Source: Lama guanicoe
Taxonomy: Eukaryota
Reading direction: 5' to 3'
NCBI GenBank assembly: GCA_013239625.1
Contig: MU053917.1
Coordinates: forward strand, 20,170 to 84,169
DNA length: 64,000 nt
Part shown: positions 6,841 to 61,810 of the stretch, piece by piece
Position numbering within the stretch: position 1 is the first letter of the stretch
Layout of the letters: each line of letters opens with the position of its first letter
The notes under the pieces: generated by a model
Told to the model about the DNA's origin: nothing
Seen by the model: the letters and a program-made list of their open reading frames with translations, nothing else
Databases searched by the model: none
Program-made: the position numbers and the translations under genes

Positions 6841-8035
6841 GTATTTTGAGGTGATAGATTTATCTTTATTTAGATAAGGTATATATGATCATTATATAAG
6901 TTGAATATATATATATATATATAAGTTGAGTATATATATTCAACTTACATAATGATCTATATATAGTGAAAATATGTGTTTAGTGAAAAATATATATAAT
7001 GTATAATTTAAGAATTTCCCTAAATCCCAACACCCAGCATAACTATTGTTAACATTTTGATGCATATTTTTCCAGACTTTTTCTATATGTAAATGCATTC
7101 TCTATCTAGCTATATCTAGATATATATGTATATATAACAGAAGAGTTCCTACTCTAAAAATATGAGACGCTGCATGAATTTGCTTGTCATTCTTGCCCAA
7201 AGACCACGATCACCTTCTCCACATCCTTCCAGTTTTAGTATATAAGCTGGGGAAGCACATGGCGTCCACTGCATCAAGCAACTAGGAGACCATTTGTAAC
7301 TTTGCAAGGCTAATTTCGGTGGAATGGTGCGGGTAGGAGCCAGATTGTGCGGGGTGGGGAATGGGTAGGCAGGGAGGAAACGGAACAAACATTAGAGCCT
7401 GCCCTCTCAAAGAAACAGGCTGTGAAGGGAAAGAGAAATAGAAGATGTCAAGAAAGGAGTAGGATGGAGAGCGTTTATTTTTTCTTTTATATTTTCGTTG
7501 TTTAGTTGGACAGGACTTCCCACTGACTAGAAGGAGCCAGCAAAGGGAGATGAAATGAGGATACGATGGAGAGGCTGTGATTGATGGATCTGGGAGTCAG
7601 GAAGGGATGGGGTAGAGGAATCAGGAACCGAACCCCATCTTCCAAGAAGGCCAGTAGGAGGGAGGTGAAGGTGGGAAGAGATGCTGCTACGTTTGGGGAT
7701 GGGTCACCTCAGAACGAAGATGGCTGGTACCCACATGTAGTCAGTTATTTGATGGAAGTCTTTCTGAACGTGTGTGAAACCAAGGGCTGCCACATTGGAT
7801 ACGATCCATTATCTGTCCCCTCGTATCCCGAGAGTGGTGCCAAGAGATGTATGTTAGAAAGGTCTGGCCTTCTCTGACAAAGTGAAACCTCGGGAACGGT
7901 CCCCAAACGCTCTGGTTACCTTAAATAACCCACGAAGGAGTTATTGTCCACCTATTTCTGTCAAAGCTACTTGAAGCTGTGTGTTTTGGTTTTGTTTTTG
8001 TTTTTTCATTTGTCTGCCCCTCAAGACATACTAAC

Positions 8036-8175
8036 TGTGAAGTAAAGCATTTAACCAAGGGAAGTTGCTTTGTACAGTAGGAAAACGGATTTGAAACAAA
8101 TCTGGTCGAATTCCATTCACTTTGACAAAATAACGTCCTTGAGCTTTGGTTGTCTTCCCTTGTGAGACTGGGATC
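8036..8175 (-). pseudogene. Candidate exon IPVSQGKTTKAQGRYFVKVNGIRPDLFQIRFPTVQSNFPWLNALLH (resembles the C-terminal part of a PH domain)
   Basis: Branch-point-like cactaac and a pyrimidine tract upstream, acceptor gtgacag|, open frame (in ORF 8031..8240), donor A|gttagt; W-x-x-A-L helix pattern. Confidence 0.55.
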
Positions 8176-8315
8176 CTGTCACGTTGACCTCGTAGCGGAC
8201 AGGAGGTAGCGTAAGGTAATGATGGTGTTAGTGTCCCCACAGGCGGCTGTCCCGTACGCGTCTTGTCACTCCCGGTGTTTGAGGGCTCCTTTCAGTGCTG
8301 CACACCAGCACTTGC

Positions 8316-8488
8316 TGACAGAAGCAGGGAGCTCATGATAATGAAAATAAGCTTTGGTCAGTGAGCAAGAAAATTTTGGCTATTGCGAAATGTGAATATG
8401 ATGAAGCAGGTGGAAAGGACTAACCCCTGGCCATGCAGACTTCGCAGAGCCCGTCTGCATGTCCTGAAGGCCGTGGTACGTTTCATGT
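8316..8488 (-). pseudogene. Candidate exon (...GLVLSTCFIIFTFRNSQNFLLTDQSLFSLS*APCFC), disrupted
   Basis: Acceptor ttttgtaaaatacag|, GC donor gcaagt; phases fit both neighbouring candidate exons, but there is an in-frame TGA. Confidence 0.3.
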
Positions 8489-9024
8489 CTGTATTTTACA
8501 AAAGCGTTATCACCTCAGGTACCTGTTGTCTCATAAGCACCGAGTTAAATGCCACAGAGGACCAGAAGGAAACCTGGGTTATTGTTCCTTTTTTCACATG
8601 TGACTTTCCGTGACAACACGCTTAATGAGGTGATTTACCAGCAGGCATGTGTGGCTGGGTAGCGCTGGTGCTGAAATGTCAGTCCTCCCCACAAAAGACA
8701 CCTAAGCAAATACAATTGCTATAATGTGTTATGACCTTTCAAGTCCAGTAATTCAGTTGAAAGGGGCGAGGGTAACACAAGGCAGGTGAATTATCTCCCA
8801 TTGACTAAGCTGCCACCAGACGCCCAGCTGTACCCGCACGTTCTACCTGGTGAAGGACCCACTTTAAAATGGGAGAGGGGCGCTCAGAGAGGCAGCGGTG
8901 TCCGGCTTGAATCAGTTCTCGAGTTTCTGCAGCTTAACTCCTTGTTAACTCACCACAACCTGAATGGATTTAACTTTGACTTTAAAGATAAGAACTTGCT
9001 TAAAAGAATCCAAATCCCTTTGAA

Positions 9025-10368
9025 CGTAGTCCGGTGGCCTCAGAAGCGGGTGTGCAGGGTGCCCACTGGATTCGTGGCTTGGCGGCAAAACGCGCTTGGG
9101 AGGTCGCGGGGCGAAGGGTAGGGCCAGGCTGGGGGCGCCCTTATCCATGTTCAGCGATGATGACGGCCACCGCGAGGATGGTCCCGAGCACACAGCTGCT
9201 GTGCCCACCGCCAGGGAGATGGAGGAGAAGTTCCAGGCCTCGAGTGAAGCGGTGTCCCGGCTGACCCCAGGTCTCCGCGGGCCAAGGCCGCGGGTACCTG
9301 CGCGGGAGGGTGAGAGAGAGCGGGTCAGAGAGCTGCGTCCTCGGCCACAGGCCTCAGCCTTCCTCCTAGATACCCCCCCAAACGTCCAGCATTCCCTGGG
9401 AATAAGAAGGCCTCCTCTCCACACCCCGCCTCCATTCCCTCCACCAGCCCCCCCACCCCTGCACCAACTGGAGGATGGCAGTGATGCCCGCGGGCCACAA
9501 GCGGCGGCCGGAGGGCCGCACCCCGATGCGCACGAGGTCGTGCAGCGGTCGCGGGGGCTCCAGCAGGGCCGGCCCGGGGCCCCGGGAGGCCGGCGGAGCC
9601 TGGAATTCCCTCGGCTTCCCCCCGGGGGCCCGTCTGCATAGGGCTGTGGAAGGAGGGTGGTGGGGAGAGGCCGTCACTCTTACGCTCGCTGAGCCCACCA
9701 ACTGCACGTGTCTGGCCGAGACAGAAGGCTGTTTCCTTCTTTCAGACCGCCTCTGGGCTAGCAGGGCCTGATCTTCGAGCCGACGGACCGCTGGACACGC
9801 CCTCCCCCTCCAAAGGCCTTTCCCCTCGTCCCTCCCTCCCCGTGGCCCCAGAAGAGCGCCTTGCCCCCTACCCCACCAGCCCCCAGCCCCCAGCCCATCC
9901 CCAGTTCCCCTCCACTGCTCCAGCCAGGCCCGGGCAGCCGGGCGCGCGGGGTGCCCGCGGGGAAACCGGCAAGTGGGCGGGGCCGGGCGGCCGCCGAGGG
10001 AGGGGCCCGCAGCCCCTAGTTCAGTGCGCCCAAGCCGCGTGTGCGTGGGCAGGACCGGGCCTGCGCGGCCTGGGGGACGGGGGCGGACCGGGGGCTTGTG
10101 GCGGCGGGTCGGTCCCTGGTAGCGAGTGTCCTGCAGGTAAGGGTCGGGTGGCCTGCGGGGCAGGACGAGGTGGCCGCCGGGCGGGGTCCGGCTTGGTGTG
10201 GGGGGCTCGGCAAGGTGGCGGGGGACCGGGGAACCATACTGAGCGGTGGCCCCCGAAGCCAGGCCCCGTGCTCCTCAGCGCAGGTGGGTGGCGGTGGTGA
10301 CAGTAAGGGTGCAAAGAGGGGGCTGCGTGTTGGGGCAGCGTGGGAGGTTGGGCTGGGGGGCATTGTAG
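9025..10368 (-). pseudogene. PRRT1: Unprocessed, truncated PRRT1 (SynDIG4, CD225/dispanin family) pseudogene fragment: exon 2 part 10368-9950, exon 3 9643-9459, exon 4 from 9297 with stop at 9143-9141
   Basis: Minus-strand peptides YNAPQP, ATLPSPPHQA, PPDPYLQDTRYQG, PYADGPPGG, GPGPALLEPPRPLHD, WPAGITAILQLVQ, VPAALARGDLGSA, ASLEAWNFSSISLAVGTAA and LGTILAVAVIIA match recalled PRRT1 (YNAPQP, ATLPRPPHHA, PPDPYLQETRFEG, PYAGGTPGG, GPGLALLEPRRPPHD, WPTGIIAIFKAVQ, VRTALARGDMVSA, ASREARNFSFISLAVGIAA, LCTILTVVIIIA). Both introns keep their AG acceptors; both GT donors are lost; several frameshifts. Confidence 0.93.
9030..10345. promoter_or_regulatory. CpG island coinciding with the PRRT1 fragment
   Basis: Visibly very GC-rich with dense CpG over about 1.3 kb, between AT-richer flanks. 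Confidence 0.75.
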
Positions 10369-10650
10369 AAAAAAAGAAAACCCTAAAACAAAAAATGAAA
10401 CAAACGTATAGAGTAAGACACAGACTCATAAATACAGGGAGAACAAATCAGTGGTTACCTGTGGGGAGGGGGGTGTGGGGAGGGGCAAGATAGGGCAAGG
10501 GGCTTAAGAGGCACACACTGCTAGGTATAAAATAAGTAAGATGTGCCGATGTCATGTACAGCACGGGGAATATGGCCAATGTCCTATAACTTTGAATGCA
10601 ATATAATGAATAAAAATACCAAGTCACTATGTTGTACACCTGAACTATTC
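10369..10650 (+). mobile_element. LINE-1 3' UTR fragment abutting the 5' break of the PRRT1 fragment
   Basis: acagactcataaatacagggagaacaaatcagtggttacc ... gtataaaataag ... gtacagcacggggaatatggccaat ... cactatgttgtacacctgaa is a typical L1MA/artiodactyl 3' end. Confidence 0.85.
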
Positions 10651-10659
10651 TTCAGTATA

Positions 10660-11345
10660 AATACAGTGAATTTTTCACTGTTGGATACTATTTCATGATA
10701 TCAGCAGAATATTATTTATCATTCATTGTTGACAGATGTTTGCAATGTTACGGTGTTTACCTACAGTGAGCAGTGCCCCCAAAACCATTCTTTCCTGCAG
10801 CTAAAGCGCACGTACGGGAGTGTTTCTAGGTTGTGTGCGTACCATTGGAATCACCAGATCATAGGTTATGCCCAAGTTCAGCTTTGCTAGGTGGTCCCAA
10901 CTCGGGTTTCTTTTTTTTTTCCCGGTTAGTTTGACCAGTTGATAGCTGCTTCTGCAGTGTGCGAACGTTTCCATTGCTCCTCGTGCTCACCAATATTTGC
11001 TGTTAACTTGAAACGCCTGCTAATATGGTCTGTGTGAAATGGAATGCTTTTGTGCTTTTAGTCTCCGTTTCCCTGATAACTGAGATTGAAGCTCTTTTAA
11101 TATGTTTGGAAGCCATCTGGGCCGGTTCTTTGGTTAAAATTTTTTTGTTCCTTTTGCCCATCTTGAGTTATCTGTTGATACCGGTTTGTAAGTGTTGTTT
11201 ATCTAATCTTGGTATTGAGTCTTTATCATTAGTATGCATTTCCCAGCTTATAGCTTGTCTATGTTGCTTTTGGATAACATATTCTATACTTTTTAATATA
11301 GTTGAAAGCCAACCTGAGTTTTTGCTTTGTAAGATTTTGTGTTTT
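10660..11345 (-). mobile_element. Old L1M fragment (ORF2 end / 3' UTR), degraded
   Basis: tttccattgctcctcgtgctcaccaatattt and tttccctgataactgagattgaagctcttttaatatgttt are reverse-strand L1 signatures. Confidence 0.65.
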
Positions 11346-18574: not shown

Positions 18575-18681
18575 GGAGCATGACCTCGGCAGCTTCGCCT
18601 ATCGTATTAAAATGGGACCCCAAACGTTTGGAAATCCGGACGCTGACCGTGGAGAGGCTCTTGGAGCTGCTTGTCACACAG
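18575..18681 (+). pseudogene. CTNNA2: Alpha-N-catenin first coding exon copy; ATG at 18580, MTSAASPIVLKWDPKRLEIRTLTVERLLELLVTQ
   Basis: tctctgcag| acceptor, CAG|gtaaga donor, 107 nt. Four differences from recalled CTNNA2 MTSATSPIILKWDPKSLEIRTLTVERLLEPLVTQ (T5A, I9V, S16R, P30L). Confidence 0.92.
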
Positions 18682-35200: not shown

Positions 35201-37441
35201 CGTTCTGTGTAATCATAGGTACTAAATAATTTTGAATGCTAACGGAGAATATCAAAACCTTTCCATGTTGTACCTCTTCTATCGAATATATTCAAATGTG
35301 GTGTTCGAATCCCAGAGAATCCTCATCATTAGGAAAAACAGGCTGTCACCGTTGTATGTTCTGGTCTTCAAATCAACGTATTGGAGTGAGGACGGGAAGC
35401 AATCCCAGCTTTGTTGGGGCCGCGTTATGGATACAAAGGAAAATGTTTTCTGTTTTGACAGTAGCGCTGTACATGCACTGAATATGGGCTGAGATTTAAC
35501 TAAATCAGAAAAGAGATCAGAAACAGAGTGTTTACAAGAACATTTGTTGCTATTGCATCCTTTTCAAATGGACTTTCTGCAGCAGTCTTTTCTATTTGAA
35601 TTGGATTCAGGTTTTTAAAATGTAAATGACACAGAAACTTAGTAGGAGCAGCTGTAATCATTTATTCATTCAACTTGCATTTTTGAAGACCCACCCTCAG
35701 CCACGCTGTCTGTGAGTTCTGGGCACATAATGGTGAGCAACAGAGGTGCGGGCTCATTGCCAGTGAGAAGGAAGAAGGTATTGACCACATTTAATAAAGC
35801 CAGATGCTGAAATGGGCCAGCGAGTGGGTGAGGGGTGAGCTGGGCTGGATTTTACCATCTGATGTGGAGCCTTGGTTGGATGGATAGGGACCTTCACGCT
35901 CCTGAAAACGTGCGCGGAGTTAACACACAGGCCGTTAGTGGAAGTGCTGACTGAGCGTCTAGGGTGGTTAATCGTTAGAAGAGAGAAGTTTTCCACAATT
36001 ATCCTGACTTGCTGTGTCAGCATCAAGTGGTCCTCAGATCTCACAGAATCCGTCTCCTAATCGTCCAGCCTCACCCCGCAGTCTCTCCCGCCCGCCCATC
36101 TGAGGAGCCCACCCCCTTCGTTCCCTCTCAGAGCAAGCCGTCCGTTTCCTGTATCTCACCGTGCAAGCTTTGTCTTGTGTCCTTACTGCATTTACTCCTT
36201 CGATGTTTTTGTGCCCCCCACCATTCGATTCAAATGCCACGAGGACAAGGCCGATGACTGTTTCCCTCACCTGGGTGTATCCATTGCTCGGTAGCCTGAA
36301 TGGCACGGAGACGTGGCTCAGTAACTCCTCGTTGCAGCTGAAAAACGAGCTGCTAAGTCTGAACACCCACTTTGTGGCTGATCATGGTCACGCAGTGGAG
36401 AGTAATGTCATTCTGAAGTGTGATTCTGTTGAAGTGTGATTCTGTTTTTTTTTTTTCCCTCTGCAAACTTTAGCCTTTCTACAAAATGGGAACTGCCTTT
36501 TATTTTTATTTTGAAAGAGATCGTATGTAAGTATAAAGGGCAATGAAAGGAAGTAACTCTGATGAAGTAAGAAAGTCAAAGAATAGATAAGTAGGATGCT
36601 GTAACATTTCTAAAGGTCCTTTGCATTTTTGCTTTCTGCTTTGGTATTTTCAAAGTTTTAAGGAAAAGTTTTCTGCCATAAGGCCAAGAGGAGTTAGATG
36701 GCTGCCGTCCCCGCTCCCTGAAGACGCACTCGGCCCGTCGTCTCACTCCTTTGTGAGTCCTCTTGGTCTTGTGAAGGTCGGGTGGCTTTTTCTTTTAAGC
36801 CAGATTTGGAGTAGGGCCCTCTTGACGCCCCGCCGCCTCCTTTGGCAACCGTTTCTCCTCTCTTGTGAAAAGAATCTTTTCGGTTGCGTTGTTTACCAGA
36901 AGTCATTTGTAAACATAGATCGCTTTCCCCCCCCCCGCTGGCGTCAGTGTGGCCGTTGAGAGTTCAAACGGGAGATGCGTTCTAAAACGAGAGAATGAAC
37001 TGGGGAGAAGGCCACGTGGTTACATTTTATCTACCAGGTGAGAATTTTAATTTTTTACCCATTGTTTGAATGACTGCATGATCCAAATATATATAAATGT
37101 GGCCTGTGTGCGTACCACTCCCTCGTCAGCTAGGCAGACGGTACGAATTGTTCCCAGGACGTGGCTGCGCTGCTCGGCCCGAGGCCCCACCTGGATACAC
37201 GCTGGTTCCGTGCACGGGTCTGGGTGCGTGTGTAACGGGAAGGTACCCGGGCTGGTTCAAAGGCGAACGCGTGCGAGAAGCCCGGGCCCGTCCAGTCTGC
37301 AGGGCAGTCATGACGCGAGCAGGAAGCGTCTCTGAAGCATAATTCCTGCCTTGCAGCTCGTGAACCTGCGTCCTGTCCTCGTGTCGTACATGCACACCCG
37401 CTTTGTGTCACGGAGGTGGACACGTGTGAGCGTCCGCCCCC

Positions 37442-37766
37442 CCAGGCCGGCCTTGTTCCCTTGTGCTGCACTTCACTGTGCTTCGTAGATACTGGGGCGT
37501 TTTTTGTTTTGTTTTGTTTTGTTCTCACGAATTGCAGGTTTGTGACAACTCTGCGTTGTCAGAGGACGGTTAGCATTTTTTATCAATAAAATTTAATTTC
37601 TAGGTTAAGGCAGGTGCACTGTGTTTTAGAGCTCGTTACTGTTGCAGACTTTGACGGACTGCAGTGTGCTGTGAACAGGACTTTGTGTGTCCGGGAAGCC
37701 GGGGAGCGCGTGTGAGTCGCCGTGCATCCCGCGCCCCACCTGCCGCGTCTCCGCGGGCGGCTGTCT
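37442..37766 (+). mobile_element. Tigger1-derived MITE, strongly GC-shifted
   Basis: gcttcgtagatactg ... aattgcaggtttgtgacaactctgcg ... ggttagcattttttatcaataaa match recalled Tigger1 ends. Confidence 0.75.
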
Positions 37767-39682
37767 GTTGGTTCGGTGTTTAGGGCTGATCTTTTGATGG
37801 GTTTCCCTCACCTCTTCTCTCTCGGTGCTGGGTTCCTTCTCTGTCCTAAAGCCCAGTGAGTAGCATGGGGACTGCATCTCTGCCGAGCTCCTGGCTCTCA
37901 TATCTCCTGGCTGAGTTCAAAAGCCTGAATCCTGTCTCCAGACCCCTCAGCCGCTGCCTACGCGTGGCCTTGGAGGGACAGGTTGCTCTGACCCACGTCG
38001 ACATCAGCCCAGAACCCCCACTGCCGTCTCCCGCCCCGCCCGCTGGGGCTGCCCCCTGGGTGTTGCCTGCGTCACCGGCCCAGCAGGAAGCACCGTAGCA
38101 CCTGCTGGCCTCGGGGGGCCCTGGCCCATCTCTGCAGTTGGCTCCTCTGCTTCTCTTGCTCATTCGCCTCAGTTAGCTCTGGGTTCCGTCTGATGTGCCC
38201 ACACGTATCGTGACAGTGACAACTCATAGGGGAAGAAGGCACAGGAAGGGGAGGCGAGGGGCCCTCACGTCTGTTTGGGATTTGATGCCCTGTGAATCCC
38301 TGGGGACGTGCCCCTTCGCTTTCCCGCTTTGGCTGGTGTCTCTGGAAACCTTCCTGAGAACACGGGGAGCCTCCGCTTCTCTTAGACCCCGTGTTGTTCA
38401 CTGGAGATGTCTGCGTTCAGGGCTAGCATCGCTGTAGAGGAATAATGAGTCAGTGTGAGTGAGTAGCTTGTCTGCACCGCACACCGGCCCTGGGGCACCC
38501 GCTCCCTGGTCACCGTGCCGTCCTGACTGCGTGCCGAGCGCCTCGGGGTGACGGCACAGCGCAGCTAGACGGGGCCGCAGAAGGGCTCGGCGCAGGGCTC
38601 TCGCTGCATCCGTCTCACATCTCACAGGATTCGGGCCCGGAGCCTGAGCTGCGTGCGCCCTCGTCGTCTTTAGGAGCTGATTCTCATGCCGTGACGACAC
38701 GTGGCTTTCACGTTTAGCGTGTCACAGCGCTCGCTTCATGGGAACTCTATCTGAGTGTAGATTATAAAGTGGAGCGTCTCTAAATTGCCCGAGTCCATCG
38801 TGCGAGGCAAACGTGAAACGAAGGTGATCAGGCGAGGATGCGACGAGAGGGAGTCGGTCTGGCTGCGAGGCCGGACCGCGCCGCTGGCTTCCGTGTGACC
38901 GTAAGCAAGTACCCGTCTGGTGTCGCTTCCCTCTGGCAGGAGAGTCGTGTCATCATTCCGTGTATGTGTGCAGATTCGTTGAGAGGAAGCATCGTCAGTT
39001 CCAGGAAAAAAAGCTTTTGCGGAGCACACGTCCAGGCACGTGCTTTCCTTCCTTCCTGGCAGGAGGGCCAGTTGGTGACTGTTGGTCTAAGATTTTCTAA
39101 TGTCCTGAAGTTGGTAATAAACAGGTGACGTCACGTGGTGCTGGGTGAGGTCTGAGACCTCCTCCTGGGGTCTCATACCTCTGCTTATCCAGGTACCGAG
39201 GCAAATCTGACCATCCCATCACTGTAAAGGACTGTCGTCTCTGCTTTTCATCCTTCTTTTCTTTTCTTTTCCTTTTTCAGTTGTCGGTATTGTGGAATAT
39301 AATTACCACACGATGGAATTGTCTGTGTGTGATGAAACGCCTTCCCCCCTTAATGCTTTGAAGGCCCTCCTGTTCTTCCCTACGAAACCCCTGCCACCCT
39401 CAGATTCACCACACACCTTTCACGGACCCTCTTTCCCCGGTGCTGCCTGGGAGGCGCTCTCCCAGCCCAGGAGGAAGCAGTAAGAACGCAGCGGGTGAAT
39501 GGCGAGGGGCCACGTCGCTGCTGAGAAAATGCGTGTGAATCGTCTGCGTGGCGTTTGTCCACGTGCCGGGTGTCCCGCGGTTTGCGGGTCTCAGAGTGCA
39601 GGGGTGAGATTGTGCGTGTGTGGGCTTTAGGTGCGTAAACCGTAGGAACTTCAGCCAGCAGTTCGCAGGGGTGTATGTATGT

Positions 39683-39704
39683 ACACACACACACACACAC
39701 ACAC
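39683..39704. repeat. (CA)n microsatellite
   Basis: Pure AC run read directly. Confidence 0.95.
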
Positions 39705-41419
39705 ATTTGTGTGTTCTCCCTCGTTTTCATACACACAGCTCAAGAGCATATGAACAGTGCTCGAAAAGGAGTGGGATTTGTCGTGCAGTCTGGTGATTTC
39801 AGGTTGAACTTTGGGGATGTCCTCAGTGTCTACAGGGAGGGGAGGAAGCAGCGTGAGAAGCAAGCACGCTTTGTCCTTCTCCATCTGAAGTCTGGTAACG
39901 CGAGCTTTATAGTCGGTTGGCTTCAGTGTTTATAGTGCCAACGAGGCCAGTCTTCTCAGATTCGATCCCTAGGCCAGCTAAGTGTATTGATTTTTCTTAA
40001 GAGCGAGTCAGGCATGAGAAGAAACATTGTGAGAGCAGTAGACTGTGTGGCTTTCTGTCCTTTATATATGGAGCACATTTTATTACTCTTACCCCCTGTG
40101 CTAATGTTAAAGTACCACGGAAAAAATCAGATTTAACCAATGGTGCCTAGAACAAGAAGAAAAATAGGTAAGACTTGAGACCACATATTATGTTTTGAGC
40201 TTGTAATTTTGAGTTCAAAAGAAATTTCCTTAGCTATAAAAAGTGAGTGGGTTTTAAATAGTCTAATCAGGCAATCACCTGTTGCTCACCTGTGTTTACA
40301 AAGAGCAAAGGGAGAACCAGAAGTGTTCTGTACGTGTTGCTTAATTAGTCCGATTAAACACCTGCCTGAGACATCCTGGCTCAGTAGGTCCCCCTTCTCA
40401 GAGTCACTAGCACATGGCTAAAAATACAATTTTTCCAAATGTAAATATTTAACTTTAAAAATTGTTGAACTATTCTCCATACTGTGTATGAAAAAAATGT
40501 ATATGAATTATGCATTGCTTACAACACACAAAAAAATAGACTCTGCAATTAAGCTCATTTAATGGTGCTATTTACAGGAATATTCAGTTCACAAGCTTAT
40601 AAAAACATAATGGGAAAAAAAGTAAGGTGCATGTCTAAAGAAAATTATGAGGAATTTCACAAAATACTTGGGTGAAAAACTGGAGTGGGCCCCCAGGGGG
40701 CAGCAGGACCCCCATAAGCCCCAGAGTGCTTTGGGTAAAGCACCCAAATTATTCTGAAAATCCCCAAAAGGAGGTTTCAGATACTCCTTTGTTAACCCCT
40801 CTGAATTTTGACCTCAGAAAATTCATTGCTAAATTAATACTCTCCCAATTCTGTAGTGTATCTGAGTGGATACAGAGAACAGATTTCAGATCTTTATGCC
40901 CCACATTGACCATCATGAACCACAAGTCAAGAACTGAATTTCGTTAAGATACGGAATGTAGGAGTTTGAAGTCACTTAGGATAATTTTTAAGTTTGAGCT
41001 GAGGAAAAGAAAAAGAGATTCATTGTCCTGAGAATCTCACAGGTAGTGAGTGGGTGGGGCTCATTATTGTTCTTGGGACCCCTCCTTTGTTGCAGAGCTG
41101 AGTGCTTTAAGCTGTCAGATTTAAACTTCTCAACATCCCTGTGAGGTATATGACATTGCCCTCGTTTTTCAAAAGAGGAAGCCAAGTCTCTGATGCAGTC
41201 ATTTCTCACCCAGATGAGACCTGGCAGCTCCACAGCCTGCATCCTCTCCACTGCCACATGCCACTGCCTTTTACTGACGACTTGCTCCGCAGTGTTGCTT
41301 CGGTCCCGATCCTCTACACCCATTCTGCAGTTTCAGAAATGCTCATCCACTTTTTTTAAAATCCATGGTTTTTATTTTGCCAGTATCTCCACAACATCAT
41401 GTGTAACTTTTTAAACTTC

Positions 41420-47550: not shown

Positions 47551-49761
47551 TGCACCTTCAGTTGCCTGCCCTTTGGGTGAGGCTTAGACAAACTACCCTG
47601 CTGCTGGCTCTGGGCAGATGGGACAGAGTGACCGAGACCAAGGCCTTGGTGCCCTCACTGTTGCTTGTTGTTTTGGAAGAAGTCTTCCCAGTCTGTCAAG
47701 CGTGTGCGTCTGGAAGCAGAGAACTGATCCGGTGGAAGAGACATGGTCAGATAAATTGTCATAAAAGCACTGTAAGAGAAAGAAAGGAGTGAAGTGGCGC
47801 TGGCTGCTGCATTCCCGACCGCCACCGTGCAGGAACGGGGCCCTGCTCCTAGGACATCAGGCGACGAGTCGTCTGCACCAGCCTGTGCCTCACGGGTTTA
47901 CCCTCAGATCCTACCATCACTGTGTCTGAGAACAGTGGTGCCCACCCTCTGGCTGTCACTGAGACTTTCCCATTGGCCGGGGTCCACCAGGACCCTCATT
48001 ATGTCCTGGTCCTAGGACCACGAACCACTTACGCTCTTATCTGTGAGCTACAGAATTTCTTCTTTGATGTGAGGTGGAGACATTGAGGAAATATTTAGGG
48101 GGGACTAGAGAAAACCAAGCATGCTTTTAAGCTAAGGCTGACGGGCCTACAGACAAGGGGCCGTGTTGAAGGTTTAGAGGGAAATTGGCTCGGCTAATGC
48201 CTCTGAATGATGTGGTCAGAAGATCGGGGTGATTTAAAAGGGCGGTGGTAGCAGCATGCCTTTCCTGGTGTAGGAGGGGGGAAGAAAAACATGGGCACAG
48301 AGAGAAGGGAGTTTGACGGTCCTTTTGAAAGCTCCCGGAGTTTAGAGAAGGAAAAGATTGTTACTAAGAGAATTAGCCAGGAGGTGTTTCCCGGACAAAG
48401 GAGAGTTGATGTGACAGATCAGTATGATAAGACAGAAATGACTTGATTCGGGGAACTTATCGGTTACCTTAGAGATCAGTTTAAGAAGTGCTCCAGGAGG
48501 TGTGGAAATGAAAGCGCAATTTCTGAGCAGTGTATGGAAAGAGAAAACGGACACTTTAACACGTGCACTGCTATTTAAAAAAATTTTTGGCAGTGACTAG
48601 TAAGACCTAAACCCCTCAGCTCGGCTCTCAGAGGCCTCAGAGGCTTTGCTCTGCTGCGTCTGTCCGACCTCGTCTCCTATGTCACATCCGAGTTCACCCT
48701 GTTGCTCTTGTCTCTGTGGCTGGAACGTTGTGTTTTCCTCTTTTCTCTGCCGCACAGCAGATGGGCTCACAGATCGTTAGCAAAGGAGAGCGTGTGGGTC
48801 TTGAGTGACGCTCGCCTGGGGTGGCATTTGGTGTGGGGACTGGGGAGAGAGCCTGGATAGGGTAAGGGGAGACGTACCATTCAACCAGGAGTTTCTACAG
48901 AATAACCACCTTTTACAAGTTTGCCAGCGAGCTGCCCTAGGCATTTAAAGGCCTGTAAGCACCGTCTCCCCAGGATGCAGCATCACACCGGTCGTCAGAC
49001 CTGGACCCGGGCAGCCAGCCTTCGCAGCTCACTGGGGTGTCCCTCTGCTGTTAAGACCGTCCTCTGTGTTCTCCCTTGCAGTGGTAATTTTCCTCACGCA
49101 GCAGTCTCTACCTTGTGTGACGGTTATCTCTGATAGTATGAGTGTGTGGTGATAGGATGTTTACAACTGGATTTTTCGCTGGGACTGCTGCTCTGCTAGG
49201 TTTGTACTGTTTAAATCTAATGTTTAGCCACCCAGCTCTTTGCTCCTAGAGTGGTTGTAATAGTTTGTCTTTTAACTCTTCTGCGTTTTCTTGATGCAGT
49301 CACGTTTTCTGCAAGGAATGAAGAATAACTTAGTCTCGACCATTCTAGTGCTTGTATCTTGTCCTTGTCTTTTCTTATCTAACTTGTTGACTCTGTCCTT
49401 CAGCGAAACACTGAATAGCAATGGGGAGGATGAACGATTATTTCCTTATTCAAAACTGATTAAGGCGTGAGCATTAATGGGGCCTCGTAACGCTCCTTCT
49501 GTTCTTCTCTCTCACGTCTCTTTACGTTCCGCCACACGCGGAGCTGAGAGCTCTTCCTAACGGAGGACTGAATTGATTTGCTTCATTTGAAAGTCATCAC
49601 ATGTTTCTTAGGACCTTCCTGGTCATGTCCCATGTTTATTTCTTCCCACATAACTGATAGCTCCTTACCGGCTTGTTATTATGAGCGTTGCCTGAATTGT
49701 GCTCGATAGAGTAATGCGCCGTGAGATAACAGGAAAAGTTGCACTTTGTTTGCCTTGCCAG

Positions 49762-50665
49762 NNNNNNNNNNNNNNNNNNNNNNNNNNNNNNNNNNNNNNN
49801 NNNNNNNNNNNNNNNNNNNNNNNNNNNNNNNNNNNNNNNNNNNNNNNNNNNNNNNNNNNNNNNNNNNNNNNNNNNNNNNNNNNNNNNNNNNNNNNNNNNN
49901 NNNNNNNNNNNNNNNNNNNNNNNNNNNNNNNNNNNNNNNNNNNNNNNNNNNNNNNNNNNNNNNNNNNNNNNNNNNNNNNNNNNNNNNNNNNNNNNNNNNN
50001 NNNNNNNNNNNNNNNNNNNNNNNNNNNNNNNNNNNNNNNNNNNNNNNNNNNNNNNNNNNNNNNNNNNNNNNNNNNNNNNNNNNNNNNNNNNNNNNNNNNN
50101 NNNNNNNNNNNNNNNNNNNNNNNNNNNNNNNNNNNNNNNNNNNNNNNNNNNNNNNNNNNNNNNNNNNNNNNNNNNNNNNNNNNNNNNNNNNNNNNNNNNN
50201 NNNNNNNNNNNNNNNNNNNNNNNNNNNNNNNNNNNNNNNNNNNNNNNNNNNNNNNNNNNNNNNNNNNNNNNNNNNNNNNNNNNNNNNNNNNNNNNNNNNN
50301 NNNNNNNNNNNNNNNNNNNNNNNNNNNNNNNNNNNNNNNNNNNNNNNNNNNNNNNNNNNNNNNNNNNNNNNNNNNNNNNNNNNNNNNNNNNNNNNNNNNN
50401 NNNNNNNNNNNNNNNNNNNNNNNNNNNNNNNNNNNNNNNNNNNNNNNNNNNNNNNNNNNNNNNNNNNNNNNNNNNNNNNNNNNNNNNNNNNNNNNNNNNN
50501 NNNNNNNNNNNNNNNNNNNNNNNNNNNNNNNNNNNNNNNNNNNNNNNNNNNNNNNNNNNNNNNNNNNNNNNNNNNNNNNNNNNNNNNNNNNNNNNNNNNN
50601 NNNNNNNNNNNNNNNNNNNNNNNNNNNNNNNNNNNNNNNNNNNNNNNNNNNNNNNNNNNNNNNNN
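49762..50665. other. Assembly gap (904 N)
   Basis: Run of N. Confidence 1.
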
Positions 50666-51676: not shown

Positions 51677-51864
51677 GTGACGACCCTTGTCAACACAAGC
51701 AACAAAGGCCCATCTGGTAAGAAGGGGAGGTCAGAGCCACGTGCTGGCCGCGTCTGTGGAGCAGGCCACTCAGAACTTCCTGGAAAAGGGCAAGCAGATC
51801 GCCAAGGTGAGTCAGGATCTCAAGGAGGAGCTGGTCGCTGCCGTGGAAGACGTGCGCAAGCAAG
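51677..51864 (+). pseudogene. CTNNA2: Alpha-N-catenin second coding exon copy, frameshifted
   Basis: ttttatgtttaag| acceptor, AAG|gtaggc donor. VTTLVNTSNKGPSGKKGRS then a frame change to HVLAASVEQATQNFLEKGKQIAKVSQDLKEELVAAVEDVRKQ. Length 188 nt against the 196 nt implied by the recalled sequence (SGKKKGRSKKAHVL): a 3-nt and a 5-nt loss. Confidence 0.93.
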
Positions 51865-60915: not shown

Positions 60916-61029
60916 AAGAAGTTTAAGAAGAAACTAAAACTGTCTGAATGATCTTGGTTACGACCTCTAATAGAGACCCACTATGACTCAATGAAATCTT
61001 AGAGGACAGCAGTTTTTACACGTGAGCCC

Positions 61030-61810
61030 TGAGCGCGCAGCCCCGCCCACAAGCCACAAGAGGCAATCCGCGCGTGCGCAGCACGGCCCCGCCCCAGCGC
61101 CCTCCTCTGCCACGCCCCTTCCCCCGCCCACCCAATCGTCAGTTCGTCAGTTGGGCAGGCGGCAGTAGGTCGAGCGGGCGGCGGCTCCGCGGGTCTTCCC
61201 CGGGGGCGCCGGCCCTGCTCCCACCCGCCAGCGGCGGCGGCTGCAGCGGCGGCGGCTGCAGCGGCGGCCGCGCGGTCCCCCCGCGCTCCAGCAACCTGCG
61301 ACCTCGGCGAGGGCTCCCACGGCGTGGTGTGGTGAGTGCCCCCGCCCGGCCTCGGCGGACGGAGCTGCGGCGTCGGGCCCGCCCCGGCCCCGACCCAAGC
61401 CGGGCTGCCCCGCCGTCCGCGCGCCTCGGGTCTCGGCGCGGGGGAGGGGGGGGAGCCGGGCCGCTCGGGCTGGGGCGCTGCTCGCGGCGCTTCCCGGGCG
61501 GCCTTCCCTGGGCGCGGGGGGTGGGGTGGAAACCGGAACCCCTCACCTAGGGACCCCCCCCAGAACGGGAACTAAGGCTCCCCACCCCCGGGTGCTGGCC
61601 TCGCGGCCTAACCCTTGACGTCCGACTGTGAAGCCGCGAAGTCGTTCAGATGCTCGCGGCGGCGGCCGTGGTCTGGAAAGGGGTTCGCAGCGGCGTGTGT
61701 GCACAGCCCCGAAATCATTGTCTTGTTTCCCCCCCTCGCCTGCGTTTTCCGCGGACGGCTTTGGTTCAGCGCCTTCCGTGGTGCCAGTGCTAAATTGCCC
61801 ATCACGTCCT
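61030..61810 (+). promoter_or_regulatory. CpG-island promoter of an unidentified plus-strand gene
   Basis: Dense CpG; GC boxes near 61041, 61087 and 61122; NRF1-like cgcgcgtgcgca at 61069-61080; KLF-like ccacgccc; CCAAT near 61132. Confidence 0.85.
61140..61331 (+). other. Probable non-coding first exon (start approximate)
   Basis: Lies just downstream of the promoter motifs, has no ATG, ends at GTG|gtgagt (donor 61332). Confidence 0.65.

Follow-up and report, generated by a model that had tools for sequence, protein, structure and literature searches.

Introns in a gene copy usually mean that the gene was duplicated as DNA. A fragment of PRRT1, the brain gene of proline-rich transmembrane protein 1, which lies with its introns in a stretch of 64,000 nt of Lama guanicoe DNA (the window, from whose first base all positions are counted), raises the question of how such a piece was copied, into what kind of surroundings and how long ago. 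The first-pass annotation of this DNA had described an unspliced copy of about 1.3 kb, not a normal retrocopy, and had left open whether DNA or pre-mRNA was the template; the description stands, as both introns are truly those of PRRT1, and the choice of template is weighed below. Added here are intron 2 (307 nt), the inverted 3' end of an L1 element abutting the fragment, its CTNNA2 host and an age shared with Camelus ferus.

Anatomy and decay of the PRRT1 fragment

The minus strand of positions 9028-10368 (1341 nt) is certainly, to judge from its sequence, a decayed unspliced PRRT1 pseudogene fragment. A phmmer search with the fragment's own 301-residue frame retrieved four matches among 1.84 billion proteins (best E 5.8e-8), all four with a CD225 domain, which are open frames on genomic contigs where PRRT1 exon 3 is read through into introns. 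A search with one of these four led to 78 proteins, the majority named proline-rich transmembrane protein 1 and one of them from Camelus dromedarius, and a cluster look-up added Vicugna pacos; a word-based protein search with the fragment's long frame gave no match among 8000 scored candidates. The exons were placed on the minus strand by frameshift-aware alignment against PRRT1 proteins, which bears out the part of exon 2, the exon 3, the intron and the exon 4 that had been recognized at first sight, and in which the exon homology keeps the order of the parent gene.

Of exon 2, the part from Tyr20 onwards is present (9951-10368), with 81 of 133 aligned residues identical to PRRT1 sequence P0125 and about 80 nt shorter than the corresponding stretch of the parent. 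Intron 2 follows at 9644-9950 (307 nt, donor lost and acceptor kept) and aligns with the intron read-through of P0125, the one such sequence tested, at a score of 132 against a maximum of 60 in 30 shuffles. Exon 3 (9459-9643) has the 185 nt, one base short, that were first counted, owing to the loss of 1 nt near 9583; 33 of its 61 residues are identical to those of alpaca P0107, and the hydrophobic character of the first CD225 helix is gone. The 161-nt intron proposed earlier is intron 3 at 9298-9458, whose donor has changed from GT to GG and whose acceptor is kept. Two of four read-through proteins exceed all 30 shuffles in this intron (82 versus 40 and 48 versus 29), the read-throughs P0006 and P0009 do no better than shuffles, and the end of the intron together with the start of exon 4 reaches an alignment score of 83 versus 44 in shuffles. 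The remainder, 9028-9297, comprises the coding part of exon 4 and then about 115 nt of 3'UTR, to which the 3'UTR read-through of P0020 aligns at 62 against a maximum of 46 in 40 shuffles, with the last identical codon ending at 9029; the tail of alpaca isoform X4 scored marginally here (37 versus a shuffle maximum of 33) and was set aside. At the opposite end, no collinear continuation of PRRT1 was found beyond Tyr20 (48 versus a shuffle maximum of 44). The limits originally given as 9025 and 10368 can thus be kept on the right, while the left one moves to about 9028, and both ends of the fragment fall within the PRRT1 transcribed unit. By these alignments the sequence between the exons is PRRT1's own introns, matching those of other mammals.

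From exon 2 to exon 4 the fragment is divided into exons and introns in the same way as the parent gene (DSPD1 of the dispanin/CD225 family; PMC3282796), and the conserved splice site that separates the two hydrophobic helices is among the shared positions. Unlike the parent, the fragment has no promoter, exon 1 or start codon, is frameshifted, has lost its donors and gives no CD225 match. The donors read CC and GG in place of GT, both acceptor AGs are retained, and the coding part carries 10-13 frameshifts in total (exon 2 has 7-10, a number that varies with the aligner, exon 3 has one and the coding part of exon 4 two), in agreement with the multiple frameshifts and the loss of both donors reported before. 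Poly(A), likewise noted as missing from the start, was not found at the PRRT1 3' end, and neither AATAAA nor ATTAAA is present on the minus strand of 8000-11000. A processed pseudogene, i.e. a retrocopy, is ruled out by the presence of both introns and the lack of poly(A) at the gene's 3' end. Separately, a metagenome scan with alpaca PRRT1 confirmed one locus among 103 pattern matches, a fish-like PRRT1 exon (L001 236-430), which is host DNA inside a metagenome collection; it has no DNA match to the window and confirms the GT donor at the end of exon 2.

Amino-acid-fixed sites, that is, codon positions determined by the amino acid of the parent, are changed at 77 of 365 (21%), a value which is a floor for exon 2, where the alignment is optimised. 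The substitutions are one-sided, as A/T has become G/C at 39 of 131 sites and G/C has become A/T at 15 of 234 (p 6e-9), which makes the former change about five times as frequent as the reverse. A one-sided gain of G/C is usually due to GC-biased gene conversion, which would be the cause in this fragment as well. In the two long frames neither CD225 nor any other Pfam family was found at E up to 1. The 302-codon stop-free frame was rejected as a gene because shuffles yield such a frame in 34 of 500 cases, and a functional dispanin (CD225) gene was rejected because no open frame carries the domain. One RNA run holds 5% of the sampled words of 8200-11000, which is no evidence of expression. The fragment is dead and makes no protein, and no function is claimed for it.

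The CTNNA2 host and the age of the insertion

The neighbours of PRRT1 in human, which we take to be FKBPL and PPT2, had not been seen around the fragment, and the wider search agrees with this. Among 249 stop-free frames of at least 70 aa outside the fragment, one rises above the Pfam cut-off, a member of the Vinculin family that is CTNNA2, and none is another MHC class III coding piece, a search which short or decayed exons could escape. A Pfam PRR18 match at 47776-48012 falls below the cut-off (21.7 versus 27 bits), and Rfam gave no match in 10400-64000 (53,601 of the 64,000 bases). The location of human PRRT1 in MHC class III, stated in the first-pass annotation, is supported by the accessible part of PMC8193847, and the camelid MHC is placed on chromosome 20 in that of PMC6598621.

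The fragment instead lies antisense in intron 1 of CTNNA2, 8.2 kb before exon 2. The copy of coding exon 2 (18575-18681, plus strand, ATG at 18580) has intact splice sites and matches catenin alpha-2 at E 5e-13, but carries T5A, I9V, S16R and P30L in a string that is unchanged in 104 of 120 CTNNA2 matches, absent in 14 and different at one position in two. The copy of exon 3 (51677-51864, plus strand), its splice sites intact too, has 188 nt versus 196, the missing 8 nt causing a frameshift, and carries E76K and E81V. In alpaca an intact CTNNA2 is found on an 18.1-Mb contig. By its sequence, the host in the window is a dead partial CTNNA2 duplicate, which contains exons 2-3 with introns and takes up at least 9-59 kb of the window. 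Of the fixed sites in the CTNNA2 exon copies 5 of 153 are changed versus 77 of 365 in the PRRT1 fragment (p 3e-8), which makes the fragment several times as old as the release of the CTNNA2 copy from constraint; the CTNNA2 duplication itself may be recent or New World-specific.

Several features mark out the surroundings. An assembly gap of 904 N (49762-50665) lies about 1 kb before the exon 3 copy. About 9 kb past that copy, a CpG island occupies 61000-61700 on the plus strand (67% G+C, observed/expected 0.98); it has a CCAAT box and a GT donor near 61335, together with a GC-rich stretch that resembles an exon 1. This island suggests that the CTNNA2 duplicate ends near 59-60 kb, before the promoter of another gene. 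Positions 1-1000, with 29% G+C and no CpG in 1000 bases, contrast sharply with the remainder and may mark where the duplicated or G/C-biased block ends on the other side. At 36000-40000, intronic sequence and old repeats (CpG observed/expected 0.6-0.8, up to 61% G+C) present the window's strongest sign of G/C-biased substitution.

The best match of the CTNNA2 exon 3 copy is a hypothetical protein of Camelus ferus, EPY79942.1, on a 5.0-Mb scaffold. Of nine stretches of this predicted gene model, which covers the PRRT1 part and not the L1, seven occur in the window in the same order, some 5% distant at the nucleotide level: the PRRT1 fragment on the opposite strand, two pieces of intron 1, exon 2 (read out of frame), exon 3 and two pieces of intron 3. 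Two were not found, one of which could lie inside the 904-N gap. The model is a false one, assembled from the fragment on its opposite strand, CTNNA2 intron DNA and CTNNA2 exons. Its PRRT1 part corresponds to 9153-9308 read on the plus strand, with 49 of 52 codons identical.

This arrangement bears on the idea that the fragment could be a lost PRRT1 orthologue or a misassembly, for which no supporting point was found. Since intact PRRT1 proteins are on record for alpaca (Vicugna pacos, XP_072801404.1) and dromedary (Camelus dromedarius, KAB1262116.1), on 44- and 43-Mb contigs, the fragment is not a lost orthologue, a possibility that had been raised at the first reading; its flanks are those of CTNNA2, not of the MHC. 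C. ferus shows the same arrangement, and 19 of 24 listed sequencing runs hold 81-87% of the 287 words sampled from 8200-11000, the 19 positives coming from six studies with six organism labels, none on record as RNA, and one of them perhaps the source of the window. The fragment is not an artefact of one sample, its junctions being supported by these word shares together with the C. ferus model, and we consider loss of the orthologue or misassembly extremely improbable.

Because the C. ferus model has the fragment in the same order, the insertion predates the split of camels and llamas, dated to about 16.3 Ma (Camelini/Lamini; accessible part of PMC12337305), and it is probably much older than this split of some 16 Ma. 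The camel CTNNA2 exons are canonical except for N43S, and in exon 2 all three visible differences between window and camel are amino-acid changes on the window's side. Counted over all lesions, eight fall on the window's branch versus one on that of the camel (p 0.04); with substitutions only, the ratio is 5 to 1 (p 0.22). The comparison is moderate evidence for a working gene at the camel locus, in which case the fragment would also sit in working CTNNA2; alternatively, the camel model could represent the same duplicate in a less decayed state. As to the donor, residues of the fragment fit a laurasiatherian one (T-H-T in exon 2), and the fragment shares a one-codon loss with ruminant-type sequences, whereas its exon 3 lacks the alanine with which that of ruminants begins. 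In a fragment that loses codons often, and in a comparison made up without a pig or horse stretch, these residues hint weakly at an early cetartiodactyl or camelid-stem origin.

The fragment might also have been kept as a regulatory element in CTNNA2 intron 1, either as a CpG-island promoter or as a cryptic antisense exon. It has 71% G+C and a CpG observed/expected ratio of 0.65 over its 1341 nt, and the ab initio model takes 9153-9308 as a plus-strand exon. Yet the window is CpG-rich throughout (median 0.45, with 12 of 116 other segments reaching 0.65) and the gain of G/C follows from the substitution bias, so that the island-like composition needs no function to account for it. The model, moreover, is a prediction which reads CTNNA2 exon 2 in the wrong frame, and 3 of 52 codons differing from camel in the fragment versus 14 of 97 in the other intron pieces are too few to show constraint. 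A regulatory role is, on balance, very unlikely.

The L1 end at the breakpoint and the route of copying

At the base after the end of the PRRT1 match starts a 5'-truncated L1 of about 300 nt (10369-10665, plus strand), which consists of 3'UTR only and is oriented opposite to PRRT1. In comparison with four other L1 3' ends in the window, this piece scores 120-142 (shuffle maxima 64-82), the alignments beginning at its base 1-3 and reaching the L1 end; with two shorter L1 tails, the scores lay close to the shuffle maximum. We presume that it belongs to an L1MA9-like subfamily and that the young L1 and SINE copies of the window are camelid types. The TA at 10366-10367 can be assigned to either partner, which makes a 2-nt overlap at the junction, and is also the reverse of the Tyr20 codon; in three other L1 copies the same A-rich stretch comes after the ORF2 end, in two of them directly after a TA. 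With 10 pieces of L1 present in the window, the probability that the 5' end of one lies by chance within 5-20 nt of either end of the insert is 0.4-1.3%, a figure which leaves aside adjacency made by a later deletion or by a later L1 insertion with deletion.

Directly behind the L1 tail lies an older and heavily decayed fragment of an L1 ORF2 end (10670-10910, minus strand; 82 versus a shuffle maximum of 66.5 in the best of six comparisons, the others being marginal). As its continuation was not found left of the insert, where 8600-9024 behaves like shuffles in five of five comparisons, a deletion behind the L1 tail is probable. A search of the left flank against the 3' end of the L1 for a target site duplication (TSD) found none of at least 7 nt with one mismatch (chance median 8; three pairings negative); at more than 20% decay and with a probable deletion behind the tail, such a duplication would hardly stay visible. 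The 10369-10665 piece has no clear poly(A), and no obvious L1 endonuclease site was seen.

The best reading of this structure, although we rate it a little below an even chance, is that unspliced PRRT1 RNA was copied in one event of L1 twin priming; this reading covers a variant in which template switching added an antisense transcript. The course of events that we infer, with a single event on an RNA template at its start, would be the following. In an ancestor of the camelids, normal target-primed reverse transcription of an L1 would have begun on the right-hand side of a target in intron 1 of CTNNA2 and yielded a cDNA of about 300 nt from the L1 3' end, while the other, left DNA end would have primed within the 3'UTR of an unspliced PRRT1 transcript, which would have been copied back to Tyr20 in exon 2. 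The two cDNAs would then have been joined head to head, which amounts to twin priming on a second RNA. The copy would have decayed with a strong A/T-to-G/C bias, and much later a CTNNA2 block of at least 50 kb, from intron 1 to intron 3, would have been duplicated with the fragment inside, the window holding the dead duplicate.

Twin priming on PRRT1 RNA would yield the opposite orientations, the kept introns and the missing PRRT1 poly(A), the last of which the abutting inverted L1 3' end would explain. It is consistent with an L1 that starts exactly where the oppositely oriented PRRT1 match ends, and with a PRRT1 piece that is cut about 115 nt into its 3'UTR, without a poly(A) of its own; the L1 adjacency tilts the odds towards an L1-driven event. 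Against it stand the TSD, L1 poly(A) and endonuclease site, which are not seen and which age and deletion could have erased, the kept introns, which fit a DNA template equally well, and the fact that the two partners can also be brought together afterwards, by a deletion or by an L1 insertion accompanied by deletion. The inverted partners known from publications are also short, U5 being cut at 36-48 nt and ANKAR comprising 196 nt, compared with 1341 nt here. A literature search for intron retention in PRRT1 found no paper.

The kept introns lead to the competing proposal that a piece of 1.3-1.5 kb of the PRRT1 locus was copied as DNA into a double-strand break, which would make it a class 2 templated sequence insertion; the L1 would then have come independently, or the piece would have been captured as DNA at the 5' junction of the L1 insertion. 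Besides both introns, the missing TSD and a PRRT1 end that has neither poly(A) signal nor tail, absences also expected from age alone, agree with such a patch, as do the signs of deletion next to the L1 tail, and these are class 2 features according to the accessible part of PMC5110952. The same source argues that patches of this kind are often RNA-templated, so that assignment to the class does not prove a DNA template. A DNA-level patch accommodates everything except the exact L1 adjacency: if the two insertions were independent, an L1 5' end precisely at the breakpoint would still need an explanation. We hold this proposal to be a serious possibility, though a tentative one.

Deletion is also central to the view that the fragment is the trimmed remnant of a larger segmental duplication of MHC class III, joined to the L1 by a later deletion. 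Losses in the region are indeed considerable, exon 2 by itself being about 80 nt shorter. The frames of the window contain no other MHC class III coding piece, however, the fragment is flanked by CTNNA2 intron DNA that is common to C. ferus, and both its ends lie inside the transcript, which together make a trimmed duplication unlikely.

Returning to twin priming in its strictest form, 1.3-1.4 kb of unspliced protein-coding pre-mRNA with two whole introns would have entered the early camelid or cetartiodactyl germ line in a single event. We regard this strict form as a real possibility, though less likely than not.

Known counterparts and meaning for camelids

Both candidate mechanisms are already known, and an intron-bearing human precedent exists. 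The accessible part of Law and Burns (bioRxiv 10.1101/2025.02.02.635956, PMC13174262) describes 17 human gene/L1 chimeras, of which 15 are in sense orientation and the two antisense ones are ascribed to twin priming. As in the guanaco fragment, the antisense mRNA/LINE-1 chimeras of that source carry a piece of an unlinked protein-coding gene, without the first exon, inverted at the L1 5' end. In the ANKAR row of Supplementary Table 5 (PMC13174262), the gene piece continues past the listed exon for 78 nt of intron, as the PRRT1 fragment runs into introns, and has a 15-bp TSD; read by eye, the ANKAR piece is antisense. The PRRT1 fragment differs in its two whole introns and greater length, in an L1 part of about 300 nt compared with about 6.4 kb and in its far greater age, and it retains no TSD or endonuclease site that would prove a single event. 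PRRT1 and CTNNA2 are absent from the text of Law and Burns and its six readable supplements, one large supplement being excluded from this statement.

The same geometry, a 3'-truncated inverted cellular RNA followed by a 5'-truncated L1, is described for twin-priming chimeras of U5, U1, U2 and U6 with L1 in the accessible part of Doucet et al. (2015, PMC4476161), where internal priming leaves the partner without poly(A). Those partners are short snRNAs and TSDs are present, whereas the partner proposed here is a protein-coding pre-mRNA and the TSD is missing. The class 2 templated sequence insertions, as far as they are presented in the accessible part of Onozawa and Aplan (2016, PMC5110952), resemble the fragment in being short copies of a distant locus, with the donor intact and with no TSD and no poly(A) signal or tail; they are human polymorphisms and experimental patches of 73-414 nt, unlike the fixed and old fragment, and need no adjacent L1 3' end. 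Among the matches listed in literature searches on PRRT1 pseudogenes or antisense transcripts, alpaca CTNNA2 and alpaca segmental duplication, the fragment is not described. It is longer and older than the published cases with which it was compared, and resembles a twin-priming gene/L1 chimera, to which group it may be assigned as a candidate.

The importance of the locus is modest. It provides a testable example of an intron-bearing gene piece that possibly moved through RNA, which would blur the equation of introns with DNA-level duplication, and a record of strong G/C-biased decay. It also misleads annotation, as the public Camelus ferus protein EPY79942.1 illustrates. For camelid and perhaps cetartiodactyl history, and for the partial CTNNA2 duplication, the fragment is a dated marker. 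If the single twin-priming event on unspliced pre-mRNA is true, the fragment would clearly exemplify a 'duplicated' pseudogene with introns that in fact arose through RNA, and would reside in intron 1 of the working CTNNA2 of all camelids, and twice in those of the New World.
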